A stretch of DNA of 32,000 nt, taken from NCBI GenBank assembly GCA_003144275.1, contig NJBF01000001.1, positions 150,001 through 182,000 on the forward strand. Reading direction: 5' to 3'. Shown here piece after piece: positions 10,435-24,879 of the stretch. Each line of letters opens with the position of its first letter. Position 1 is the stretch's first letter. The DNA comes from Candidatus Heimdallarchaeota archaeon B3_Heim. GTDB lineage: Archaea; Asgardarchaeota; Heimdallarchaeia; Hodarchaeales; Hodarchaeaceae. The notes beneath the pieces were generated by a model. The model made no database searches. It was given only the letters and a program-made list of their open reading frames with translations, and was not told the DNA's origin. The translations under genes were made by a program, and so were the position numbers.

Positions 10435-10537
10435 GGGTTCGTGGTCTAGCTTGGCTAGGATCCGTGCCTGGGGTGCACGAGTTCAGGGGTTCGAACTTAT
10501 GCTTGTGATGAGCATAACGAAATTCCCCTCGAACCCA
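10435..10537 (+). tRNA. tRNA-Pro: tRNA-Pro(GGG) with a 28-nt T-loop intron (10496-10523, position 59/60)
   Basis: Acceptor GGGTTCG/CGAACCC, anticodon arm CGTGC-CT GGG GT-GCACG. Strict BHB: GGGG/CCCC, TTCG/CGAA, bulges AAC and ATT, intron stem TTATGCT/AGCATAA. Confidence 0.95.
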
Positions 10538-10672
10538 TTCTAATTCTCTTCTTTTTCCTCCCTGATCTATGGGTGTTTTCTTTACTTAATTCAAACATAA
10601 TATGACGATATTACCCTATCCTATAATATTTTTGTCGGTTAATGGTACATAACAAAAAGGAAGGCTAATCCA

Positions 10673-11944
10673 ATGGAATCAATTTTAAAAGATGCTTTAA
10701 GTGGAACAGGATCGTTCAAAAATCTAGGAGAGGTAAAACGGGAGCGAACTACACAATTTATACCATCACCTCCAAAAATTGATGATGAAATAGCAGACAT
10801 TTTGACAGAAAGACTGCCCAAAGTCCAAGTTATAGGAGTTGGAGGTGCAGGAAATAATGCAATTTTTCGATTAATGAACACAGAAGCAGATGCTGAATGT
10901 GTAGCGGTCAACACCGATGCTCAACATTTATTGTCAACACGTGCACACAAGAAGCTACTCATTGGAAAAGATACTTCCAGAGGATTTGGAGCAGGAAACA
11001 ACCCGGAAATTGGGGAAGCCGCTGCTCGAGAATCTATAGAAGATATCAAAAGTACTCTGAGTGCAAATATGGTATTTATTACATGTGGACTTGGTGGAGG
11101 AACAGGTACAGGTGCAGCTCACGTGATTGCGAGGCAAGCCAAAGAAAAAGGAGCCTTAACCGTATCAATCTGTACTTTACCCTTCCAAATGGAAGGTGTA
11201 AAGAGATATGAAAATGCACGTCAGGGATTAAAAAAATTGTATGATGCCTCTGACACTGTGATAGTCGTACCTAATGAAAAGCTTCTCGAGCTATCTGATG
11301 ATATTACAATGATGGCAGCATTCAGAATAGCTGATGCTGTCTTATTAAGAGCCGTAATGGCCATTACAGAGCTTATTACGAAACCACAACTTATTAACCT
11401 TGATTTTGCAGATGTAAAAAAGATACTAACTGAAGGTGGTATGGCAATGATTGGATTAGGGGAATCTGATCACCAGACTATGAAAGTTGATGAAGCTGTC
11501 TACGACGCATTAAGAAATCCATTACTTGATGATTTGGATATTAGTCGAGCAAAAAAAGGACTCATTTGTGTATCTGGTGGGGAAGGATTGGCCTTAAAGG
11601 ATGCAGAAGAAGCAGTGATGAAAATTGCTACAGAAATCGATAACTCTGCTGAAATCATTTGGGGAGCAACAATCGATCCAGACCTTGGAAATAAAATCCG
11701 AGTAATTGTTGTATTAAGTGATGTGCATTCACCTTTAACCGAAAATGAGGGATTATATTATTCAAAGAGTGATTTAGAGTCATTGCTTGCTGATCTAGAC
11801 TCACCTTTCTCGGTTATTTCGTCAAAAAATCGGGATTCAGGTGAGTTGAGAAACAATTTACCCTCCGCACGCTTCTCCTTGGAGGGTGATCATGACACAA
11901 GTGAAGGTAAAACTCGCAAAAAGAAATTCTTAGGGCTTTTTTGA
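10673..11944 (+). CDS. ftsZ: Cell division GTPase FtsZ (archaeal)
   Basis: GVGGAGNNA, NTDAQHL, GLGGGTGTG tubulin signature, T7 loop NLDFADV, IIWGA. Confidence 0.96.
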   Translation: MESILKDALSGTGSFKNLGEVKRERTTQFIPSPPKIDDEIADILTERLPKVQVIGVGGAGNNAIFRLMNTEADAECVAVNTDAQHLLSTRAHKKLLIGKDTSRGFGAGNNPEIGEAAARESIEDIKSTLSANMVFITCGLGGGTGTGAAHVIARQAKEKGALTVSICTLPFQMEGVKRYENARQGLKKLYDASDTVIVVPNEKLLELSDDITMMAAFRIADAVLLRAVMAITELITKPQLINLDFADVKKILTEGGMAMIGLGESDHQTMKVDEAVYDALRNPLLDDLDISRAKKGLICVSGGEGLALKDAEEAVMKIATEIDNSAEIIWGATIDPDLGNKIRVIVVLSDVHSPLTENEGLYYSKSDLESLLADLDSPFSVISSKNRDSGELRNNLPSARFSLEGDHDTSEGKTRKKKFLGLF

Positions 11945-11975
11945 CTGATAGACAAATTTCGATTAAATCCCTAAC

Positions 11976-11984
11976 TTTTTTTTT
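11976..11984 (+). terminator. Possible oligo(T) archaeal terminator downstream of ftsZ
   Basis: A T9 run about 30 nt after the ftsZ stop, between convergent ftsZ and hypB. Confidence 0.4.
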
Positions 11985-12023
11985 ATTCTGTTCATGATAT
12001 TATTTTAACAATTTTTAGGGGAT

Positions 12024-12680
12024 TTAGTTAATACTTAGCCCAATTTTTTCAGCGAAAACTTCCATTCCTTCTCCGGTCTTTGTACTAGTGGGAACTACTT
12101 CTAGTTGAGGATATAATTCTCTAGATCCTTGCATAACTTCATGAATATCGATATCCATTGCTAGGGCAAGATCAATCTTGTTAAGGACAGCTAAATCGCT
12201 CATTCTGAAAGTAACAGGATGTTTTCGGAACACATACGGGCCTTCTGTTACACTTGTAATTGTTATCTTCTTATCAGCGCCAACATCAGTTGATGATGGG
12301 CAAATTAGATTTCCAACATTTTCAACAAAAATGAAGTCATATTTTTGAAGGTCAATGGTGTCCAGTGCTTTCTCAATCTGAAATGCCATGAGATGACACC
12401 CTCGTCCTGTATTAATCTGAATACATTTACTTCCAAATCTGCTAATTCTTTGAGCATCAATATCAGTTGCCAGATCTCCATTAATCACGAGTAACTTTTG
12501 ATTTTTGGCGAATTCTCTCGAAAAATATTCCAGGATGGAAGTTTTTCCAGATCCAACGCTTCCCATTATATCAATCATCGGAATATCAAAATTTTGTCTT
12601 TTTTGACGAATTCTTCCTGCAATTTGATCATTTTTCTCCTGAATCTTTTGATCTATCTGCACATTTATTACTTGGGGCAC
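12024..12680 (-). CDS. hypB: Hydrogenase nickel incorporation GTPase HypB
   Basis: GSVGSGKT, GDLATDIDA, TGRGCHL, ENVGNLICP, NKID. Confidence 0.93.
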   Translation of the reverse strand: MPQVINVQIDQKIQEKNDQIAGRIRQKRQNFDIPMIDIMGSVGSGKTSILEYFSREFAKNQKLLVINGDLATDIDAQRISRFGSKCIQINTGRGCHLMAFQIEKALDTIDLQKYDFIFVENVGNLICPSSTDVGADKKITITSVTEGPYVFRKHPVTFRMSDLAVLNKIDLALAMDIDIHEVMQGSRELYPQLEVVPTSTKTGEGMEVFAEKIGLSIN

Positions 12681-23397: not shown

Positions 23398-23506
23398 TTA
23401 ATTTGCCTCTGTTAGTACATATATTATTCATCTTTGAATTTAAATAACTAATTCTCTTAATTATCTGTCGTTTAATAATTCATTTTTGCAGATATGAGAT
23501 TTTTTT

Positions 23507-24433
23507 TCATATTAGGTTATTTAATACCGCTGCGACTGTATGTAATCGGTTTTCTGCTTCGTCAAATACAACAGAATGACTGCCATACATGACATCATCA
23601 GTAACCTCTTCTTTATGGCGTGGTAGACAATGCATAAAGATATAATCCTTTGCCGCACGGTCAATTAATTCCTCATTGACTTGAAAACCTTCAAATTTTT
23701 TCAGTTTCATTTTTGTCTCTGCTTCTTGCCCCATAGAAATGAAAGTATCAGTAACGACAACTTTTGCGTTTTCAACAGCAGCGATTGGATCATGTGTCAC
23801 TACTATCTGATCTGGAAAGGAGGCATTTGATTTACAATATTCGATTATACTTTTTTCTGGCATATAATCAATGGGAGTTGCTATATCCATCTGCATGCCC
23901 ATTTTAATTGAAGCTATCATCAAAGTATGGCACACATTGTTGCCATCACCTACCCAAGCAATTTTAACATCTTTCAATGTACCTAAATGTTCCTCTATGG
24001 TAAGTATATCCGCTAATCCCTGTAAAGGGTGGAACTGATCAGATAAGGCATTGATTACAGGTACATTTGCGTGTTTTGCAAGACTTTCCACGGTATCATG
24101 CGCGTATACACGAGCTAATACTGCCGAAACCATTCGTCCTAGAACTATTGCTGTATCGGATAATGATTCATTCACTCCTAGTTGTATATCGTCTTTCCCA
24201 AGAAAAAGAGCATGCCCACCGAGTTCAGCCATAGCTGTCTCTGTTGATACTCGTGTTCTTGTAGATCTTTTCTGGAAAATCATACCAAGCGTCTTGCCTT
24301 TTAATGGTTGACTTTGAATGAAATTTTGCCTATTTTGCTTGAAATCTTTTGCTTCATCTAATAAAAATCGAATTTCTTTCGCATTTAGATCTAAAAGCGT
24401 TAATAATGATCTACCTTTCATTTGAATTCCCAT
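23507..24433 (-). CDS. argF: Ornithine carbamoyltransferase
   Basis: STRTR, ES..DT, HPLQ, GDGNNV, TDTFISMG, MHCLP, EAENRL. Confidence 0.96.
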   Translation of the reverse strand: MGIQMKGRSLLTLLDLNAKEIRFLLDEAKDFKQNRQNFIQSQPLKGKTLGMIFQKRSTRTRVSTETAMAELGGHALFLGKDDIQLGVNESLSDTAIVLGRMVSAVLARVYAHDTVESLAKHANVPVINALSDQFHPLQGLADILTIEEHLGTLKDVKIAWVGDGNNVCHTLMIASIKMGMQMDIATPIDYMPEKSIIEYCKSNASFPDQIVVTHDPIAAVENAKVVVTDTFISMGQEAETKMKLKKFEGFQVNEELIDRAAKDYIFMHCLPRHKEEVTDDVMYGSHSVVFDEAENRLHTVAAVLNNLI

Positions 24434-24465
24434 AATGCATTACTTTCCTATTATAATTTGATATC

Positions 24466-24750
24466 TCATCCACCGTGAATTACAGGGATGAAAGTAAGTT
24501 TATCTCCTTGCTGTAGCGGAGAATCCATACCTCTTAATACAGAAATATCTTGTTCATTGATAAAAACAAGGACTGATCTTGTCGATTCATAGGAGTCTGT
24601 GAAAAATTTGCTCAATTCCTTATATTTTGGTAGTGCCGAAAGTTCCTGAACAGCAGATTTTACAGATGCCTCTTCTTTGAAATTATATGTTAGTTCCATT
24701 TGACCCAAATCGTATTGCAACGAACCAAGAAAAACTAAAAGGATTTTCAT
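24466..24750 (-). CDS. MoaD/SAMP/Urm1-type ubiquitin-like protein
   Basis: Beta-grasp size (94 aa), VFINEQDI, and C-terminal FIPVIHGG with a di-glycine end. Confidence 0.88.
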   Translation of the reverse strand: MKILLVFLGSLQYDLGQMELTYNFKEEASVKSAVQELSALPKYKELSKFFTDSYESTRSVLVFINEQDISVLRGMDSPLQQGDKLTFIPVIHGG

Positions 24751-24777
24751 TCTATTATCAGTCCGCTTATGATTAGA

Positions 24778-24879
24778 TGCGCCAACCGGGATTTTCAGAA
24801 CTTCTCGAGAGAGATTTTCATTTGAACCCGGGCTATCACCTTGGGAGGGTGAAGTCCTACCAGACTAGACTATCGGCGC
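24778..24879 (-). tRNA. tRNA-Gly: tRNA-Gly(CCC) with a 29-nt T-loop intron (24792-24820, position 59/60)
   Basis: Acceptor GCGCCGA/TTGGCGC, anticodon arm TCACC-CT CCC AA-GGTGA. Strict BHB: CCGGG/CCCGG, TTCA/TGAA, bulges AAT and AAT. Confidence 0.95.

Follow-up and report, generated by a model that had tools for sequence, protein, structure and literature searches.

tRNA genes and introns of the window

The 32,000-nucleotide stretch of DNA analysed here (hereafter the window; C57:150001-182000 of genome G000) encodes five tRNA genes, all of them interrupted, with six introns of 28-30 nt in total, five of which occupy non-canonical positions, as had been proposed in a sequence-only reading of the window. 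Two of these introns, in a proline and a glycine tRNA gene, lie at the same T-loop position, between nucleotides 59 and 60 (59/60). The pre-tRNA-Pro(GGG) gene (10435..10537, + strand), flanked by a proteasome ATPase gene and ftsZ (neighbours identified by Pfam), contains a 28-nt intron (10496..10523, +) within a strict bulge-helix-bulge (BHB) motif of the hBHBh' type (TTCG/CGAA), with a central helix of 4/4 pairs, an intron helix of 9 bp and an exon helix of 5 bp; energy minimization gives this BHB as the most stable fold (z=-3.7), and the spliced form is a 75-nt tRNA-Pro(ggg) according to ARAGORN. The pre-tRNA-Gly(CCC) gene (24778..24879, - strand), with an F420-ligase-family gene on one side and a Urm1/ThiS-family gene on the other, contains a 29-nt intron (24792..24820, -), again with an hBHBh' motif (TTCA/TGAA), a central helix of 4/4 pairs, an intron helix with 3 contiguous bp and an exon helix of 5 bp; the motif sits 0.3 kcal/mol above the minimum-energy fold and splicing yields a 73-nt tRNA-Gly(ccc) by ARAGORN. 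The frequency with which shuffled introns attain an equal motif is 5e-5 for Pro and 6.5e-4 for Gly. The earlier proposal that both introns form BHBs on the T-loop TTCR is confirmed, their removal leaving clean 75- and 73-nt cloverleaves. The lack of relationship between their sequences is confirmed as well: they share 41% identity, which is the level of shuffles and the lowest of the 36 values obtained when the genome's 59/60 introns are compared pairwise. A shared origin of the two was rejected on this ground.

The three other genes form an arginine cluster (5028-5442, - strand). The pre-tRNA-Arg(TCT) gene (5338..5442, -) is interrupted in the D-loop, at 20a/21, by a 30-nt intron (5391-5420) with a relaxed motif (3/4 central pairs). 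The pre-tRNA-Arg(CCT) gene (5183..5316, -) has two introns, one of 30 nt at 20a/21 (5265-5294), whose register is not unique (29/30 scored higher in one sister genome), and one of 29 nt at the canonical 37/38 position (5219-5247). The pre-tRNA-Arg(CCG) gene (5028..5130, -) has a 28-nt intron at 41/42 (5060-5087), also with 3/4 central pairs, at a site common to most orthologs. The relaxed motif thus occurs in three of the four arginine introns. In the window genes, a regular tRNA is recovered (ARAGORN) when each bulge is cut behind its second base. The introns are 28-30-nt hairpins and only tRNA matches reach the Rfam gathering score, as expected of short non-coding introns that do not splice themselves, and all five genes are contiguous and collinear, being neither split nor permuted. 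The window introns are ordinary members of the non-canonical archaeal class of BHB introns, which is characterized by a 4-bp central helix set between two 3-nt bulges, with a further helix on either side.

As had been anticipated, standard annotation misses these genes: ARAGORN without intron search finds 0/5 and Rfam 2/5 (one partially), and with its intron option ARAGORN still misses the Pro and Gly genes and assigns wrong anticodons to the Arg genes.

Predicted splicing of the interrupted genes

Neither the 49-gene census presented below nor a genome search revealed a second, intron-free gene for any of the five window anticodons. The codons CCC, GGG, AGA, AGG and CGG are all in use. Since the genes are single and their codons used, the window genes would have to be spliced to function. 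The genome encodes a catalytic subunit of the splicing endonuclease EndA that is closest to Aeropyrum pernix EndA (E 8.5e-43), has the active-site Tyr, His and Lys and, in the alignment, carries Lys at both positions matching K44 and R46 of the Aeropyrum specificity loop, a loop that confers broad specificity on the Aeropyrum enzyme (PMC3241643). A second EndA subunit, without the catalytic His motif, and an RtcB ligase are also encoded. The host is thus predicted to possess a broad-specificity EndA and a ligase; an (alpha-beta)2 splicing endonuclease would cut the introns at BHB motifs and RtcB would rejoin the exons. These genes and the motifs together point to splicing of the window introns.

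That the loci are silent, or that the inserts are assembly artefacts, is scarcely credible. The source is indeed a metagenome assembly, but the genes are single-copy and serve codons in use, their exons are conserved while the introns drift with compensatory changes, and the same introns are found in independent assemblies and in two metagenome contigs.

tRNA gene complement of the genome

The assembly (3.95 Mb, 36% G+C, 94% complete) encodes an FtsZ sharing 99% identity with that of a Heimdallarchaeota assembly and 76-95% with those of Hodarchaeota assemblies, including Candidatus Hodarchaeum mangrovi, and on this homology the host is assigned to the Asgard archaea of the order Hodarchaeales. 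The tRNA census combined a profile search tolerating long inserts with boundary refinement by BHB score and hand curation of six genes; once spliced, 49/49 sequences are called as tRNAs by ARAGORN. These 49 genes comprise 35 interrupted ones, 16 of them with more than one intron, and 14 intron-free ones, for a total of 57 introns. Given 35/49 genome-wide, five interrupted genes out of five in the window are unremarkable (P=0.17). The load of 1.16 introns per tRNA gene compares with ~2.2 in the Freyr, Jordi and Atabeya families and 0.91 in other Asgard families (Goswami et al. 2026, 10.64898/2026.10.13.758758), so that the complement cannot be called unusually intron-dense, as the sequence-only reading did.

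Twenty introns lie at 37/38 and nine at 59/60, the commonest non-canonical site (Gly CCC, Pro GGG, Pro CGG, Asp, Glu CTC, Asn, Ser CGA, Thr GGT and Phe); all nine have 4/4 central pairs. Intron lengths range from 18 to 63 nt, with a median of 30 nt and 39 of the 57 introns at 27-33 nt. The six window introns span at most 2 nt (P ~0.009) and are therefore tighter in length than those of the genome. The tightly constrained intron size claimed earlier holds as a sharp peak, most evident at the T-loop site (see below), and not as a rule for the whole genome.

The tRNA-Phe(GAA) gene (G000 C80 ~27590-27790, -) contains four introns (15/16, 22/23, 37/38 and 59/60). The first two whole-genome rescans for missed tRNA genes mainly recovered known ones, and since Phe surfaced only through a T-arm search, another heavily interrupted gene may still be missing. 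Four-intron tRNAs are also present in relatives, namely Leu(TAA) in G003, Met in G015 and Glu(TTC) in G016. Because ARAGORN in default mode retrieves only 16 of the 49 genes, tRNA counts obtained with plain ARAGORN are unreliable for such assemblies.

Two extra intron-free genes, a Leu(CAA) (G000 C57:192643-192729, -) and a Glu(TTC) (G000 C5:4246-4317, +), are unlike the native copies and possibly represent imports or contamination, one of them being close to the end of its contig and the other on a contig of 7 kb. A tRNA-like gene (G000 C84:9867-9973 (-) / L058:7868-7974) combines a Thr-like T-arm with a 4-bp BHB that is perfectly paired; once 35 nt are removed, its anticodon stem has 6 bp and the loop 8 nt (TTGAGGAA). 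It has no full-length match among 23 relatives and is probably a degenerate or imported copy.

The T-loop site 59/60

For each junction, the share of the 49 mature tRNAs able to pair with one common intron 4-mer was determined, together with the length of the exon outer helix. At 59/60 the common 4-mer fits 100% of the tRNAs and the outer helix is at least 3 bp in 98%, compared with 37% and 100%, respectively, at 37/38; at neighbouring T-arm sites the common 4-mer fits 94-100%, but the outer helix at most 22%. No other site allows a single intron to suit every one of the 49 tRNAs of this genome. By this computation, one strand of the central helix comes from the invariant T54-T55-C56-R57 and the outer helix from the T-stem, so that any hairpin ending in YGAA-N-N is removable from any tRNA at 59/60. 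Among the 59/60 introns of relatives, which as kin are not independent, base 57 covaries with its intron partner (A57 with T, 70:1; G57 with C, 12:2). The recurrence of the T-loop site is explained by its being the only universal one, and therefore requires neither common ancestry nor a special function.

59/60 introns in relatives

To investigate relatives, 24 genomes of the order were searched by synteny, by DNA similarity and with a pattern that permitted introns of 22-46 nt. This provided 87 verified 59/60 introns from 23 genomes and 27 anticodons, of which 84 are 28-33 nt long (32/34 in the pattern-free subset); introns at other sites are more scattered (103/178 within this range).

The Gly(CCC) intron is old. 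It is present, mostly with 29 nt, in 14 of the 15 genomes where the gene was seen, its central helix is paired in 13/13 aligned orthologs, and five pairs of the intron hairpin show compensatory changes. The Pro(GGG) intron is patchy, being present in 9 genomes and absent from 13; on the ftsZ tree this takes four or more changes, of which only two are forced by well-supported branches. The copy in the window is shared with four sister genomes (75-100% identity), the introns of different clades are unrelated (40-57% identity), and one genome has a Pro(GGG) intron that resembles an Arg intron of that same genome (70%) more than it does any ortholog (at most 57%). Exons are conserved in ortholog comparisons while introns drift. 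The window Pro and Gly introns are thus inherited, differ in age and bear no trace of a common origin. The active intron gain suggested from the sequence is borne out, in that both gain and loss are ongoing; these events would be frequent and roughly neutral.

Each intron could instead be an independent chance insertion of ~30 bp, kept only where a BHB forms, with 59/60 merely permissive and copying marginal. The unrelated window introns, the divergence of Pro(GGG) introns between clades and the similarity among the nine 59/60 introns of the genome, which does not exceed that of shuffles, all agree with this explanation, as does the work of Goswami et al. (2026). Independent insertion cannot, however, yield the 90-97% identical introns seen in different genes of three genomes; it is unlikely as a complete account, although compatible, for first origins, with the explanation retained below. 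Two other origins were rejected: tandem duplication of the adjacent exon was detected at P<0.05 for 1/57 introns downstream and 3/57 upstream, which is chance level, and a loose pattern aimed at viral donors gave chance matches, none of the 80 checked being a 59/60 intron.

Probable same-site copying between tRNA genes

Within four relatives' genomes, five pairs of introns located in different tRNA genes are at least 80% identical (range 80-97%), all at 59/60: Glu(CTC)/Glu(TTC) in G001 (28/29 identical) and in G017 (28/31), Arg(CCT)/Arg(TCT) in G002 (29/30), Ser(GCT)/Arg(TCT) in G002 (80%) and Leu(GAG)/Leu(TAG) in G012 (81%). One further same-site pair of 100% identity was a single locus counted twice and was excluded. 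Families at this threshold include 9 of the 83 eligible 59/60 introns, and 60 shuffles gave none. Within genomes, 5/211 pairs of 59/60 introns reach 80% and, between genomes, 1/3307 cross-anticodon pairs. None of 335 other same-site pairs and none of 1772 cross-site pairs reach 75% in the sample of relatives' introns, which is incomplete. Since the pairs at or above 80% are all at 59/60, with none at other or crossed sites, the comparison favours same-site copying between tRNA genes of relatives. The 5' parts of the paired genes share 92-98% identity with their own orthologs vs 53-86% with the partner, so whole-gene duplication fails to explain the pairs; the 3' exons are 76-100% alike. Copying probably proceeds by gene conversion through the conserved T-arm, the simplest route by which introns would spread locally between tRNA genes.

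An RNA route has also to be considered, in which EndA and RtcB would insert an excised or circular intron into a different tRNA by reverse splicing, before it is copied back into DNA. It would account for a single size class at all sites, and for the Ser/Arg pair, with 3' exons only 76% alike. It too needs a matching helix half and hence would favour 59/60 as well. The absence of cross-site pairs at 75% (0/1772) and of any reverse-transcription signature according to Goswami et al. (2026) nevertheless make it improbable.

Taken as a whole, the explanation that we consider quite probable is that of working single-copy genes, BHB splicing, a universal 59/60 site and same-site copying. Several points weigh against it. 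Spliced RNA was not found in the two metagenome scans, one being empty and the other containing two intron-bearing Gly copies. The present genome contains no recent copy, its best 59/60 pair being 67% identical, and copying was reported for only 1.5% of focal Asgard introns vs 28.3% in Thermoproteales (Goswami et al. 2026). Copying accounts for the spread of introns and not for their first origin, and it leaves unexplained the 29-30 nt peak at other sites. Lastly, most of the 87 introns came from the motif pattern, which favours good motifs, the relatives are not independent of each other, and all the genomes used are metagenome assemblies.

Two further observations concern relatives. Leu, Ser and Trp 59/60 introns of G003, G011, G012, G015, G016 and G019 form a loose family, starting with N-TTC and ending with GAATGAAA-N, whose members are 75-81% alike across genomes and isotypes and which may represent an older wave of copying. 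The body of Arg(CCG) is CCT-like in G002 (L007:593-724) and GCG-like in L018:881-994, rather than ortholog-like, which suggests tRNA remoulding by duplication and anticodon change.

Proposed protection against integrases

It had also been suggested that introns are retained as they disrupt integrase attachment sites in tRNA 3' halves. Tyrosine integrases commonly target the part of the tRNA gene that contains 59/60. The retention of the Gly(CCC) intron in 14/15 genomes would be in line with such a role. The idea is credited to Randau and Soll in a citing paper (PMC4033280). However, 14 tRNA genes are intron-free, four of the six window introns lie 5' of the T-arm and the Pro intron is absent from 13/22 genomes. 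Three low-power checks were also negative: 0/8 integrase matches adjoin a tRNA, no attR-like duplicate of the window genes was found, and 80 viral pattern matches were devoid of any 59/60 intron. Protection thus appears very improbable, and this part of the sequence-only reading was not upheld.

Comparison with known systems

Introns at 59/60 and intron-rich Asgard tRNA sets are already published. Indeed, 59/60 introns were described in the pre-tRNA-Cys(GCA) and pre-tRNA-Pro(GGG) of ARMAN-2 (Fujishima et al. 2011, PMC3239211), matching the present introns in position and motif and, for Pro(GGG), even in isotype. The permuted tRNAs of Thermofilum pendens and Cyanidioschyzon merolae have their junction at 59/60 (Chan et al. 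2011, PMC3218864), whereas the genes studied here are linear. Unlike in these cases, the site is used by 9/49 genes in one genome and by 27 anticodons across one genus; moreover, EndA is here a two-subunit enzyme and not an epsilon-2 one.

Among Asgard archaea, 92-95% of tRNA genes are interrupted in three genomes (Valentin-Alvarado et al. 2024, PMC11291895), and a survey of 90 genomes revealed T-arm enrichment with strict motifs, repeated gains and a median length of 22-23 nt (Goswami et al. 2026). These sets and the present genome have in common a majority of interrupted genes, many non-canonical sites, a strict T-arm hot spot, repeated gains, genes missed by annotation and two EndA paralogues. 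The pattern is thus largely catalogued for Asgard archaea, Hodarchaeales being absent by name from the main text of that preprint. The differences lie in the intron load (1.16 vs ~2.2 per gene in the focal families) and in intron length (median 30 vs 22-23 nt); same-site copies make up 9/83 T-loop introns in relatives vs 1.5% of all focal introns, two figures that differ in sampling and are not directly comparable.

Transposition of tRNA introns was described in Thermoproteales (Fujishima et al. 2010, as cited in PMC4090602 and PMC4033280). As far as these citing papers present it, in Thermoproteales as in the Hodarchaeales relatives, different tRNA genes of the same genome contain similar introns, and an EndA with a Crenarchaea-type specificity loop is common to Thermoproteales and the present genome. 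Introns at least 80% identical in different genes, a trait of the Thermoproteales type, occur in four relatives and neither in this genome nor in the Pro/Gly pair. Copies at different tRNA positions, another such trait, are lacking at the 75% level among the 1772 cross-site pairs of the incomplete sample.

Other genes and tRNA-Gln decoding

An rpoN-linked tRNA-Gln gene (G000 C10:37765-37873 (+); L064-L080) has the anticodon CUA with U37 in G000, G004-G007 and G012, and CUG with G37 in the 11 other genomes read. The six CUA genomes, four of which are less than 90% complete, have only a diverged, second-type GatE (~335-350 bits); all 11 CUG genomes have a high-scoring GatE (530-580 bits), and G016 has both types, which are ~38% identical. 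TAG acts as an ordinary stop, and PylS was searched for and not found. A glutaminyl-tRNA synthetase (GlnRS) gene (TIGR00440, 687 bits; G000 C76:3366-5723, L060) adjoins an intron-free tRNA-Gln(CTG)/(TTG) pair with G73, and 12 of the 24 genomes of the order share this GlnRS, the majority of these 12 retaining GatE as well. Direct glutaminylation is unusual for archaea, and a literature search found no report of GlnRS or direct glutaminylation for this group. Directly downstream of the gatED operon, a gene of 426 aa (G000 C61:21578-22858, -) encodes a putative IS200/IS605-type TnpB according to its N-terminal sequence.

In the window itself, an intergenic segment (15137-15233, +) gives a weak match to C/D-box RNA (E 0.73), with ATGATG and TGAG boxes and an 8-bp terminal stem, and is possibly an archaeal C/D guide RNA. 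From ~28450 to 32000 (+), a long open reading frame extends past the window end; its product is rich in Thr, Ser, Asn and Asp and resembles a large surface protein.

Significance for the Hodarchaeales

The additions made here to published knowledge are modest: the universal-site calculation, the 28-33 nt range at 59/60 and the same-site copies in relatives. They offer a structural reason for the T-loop hot spot, together with named donor-recipient pairs, in an Asgard order often placed nearest to eukaryotes. A link between the 30-nt length and the archaeal histone footprint or the CRISPR spacer length is speculation only. We tentatively propose, with slightly less than even confidence, that the T-loop in the Hodarchaeum group is a self-spreading niche, in which ~30-nt introns hop by same-site gene conversion and their length is selected rather than due to shared descent. 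The 2026 census left open how Asgard tRNA introns arrive; the copied pairs make one route testable, and the self-spreading T-loop niche, if true, would be a concrete route of arrival for these introns.

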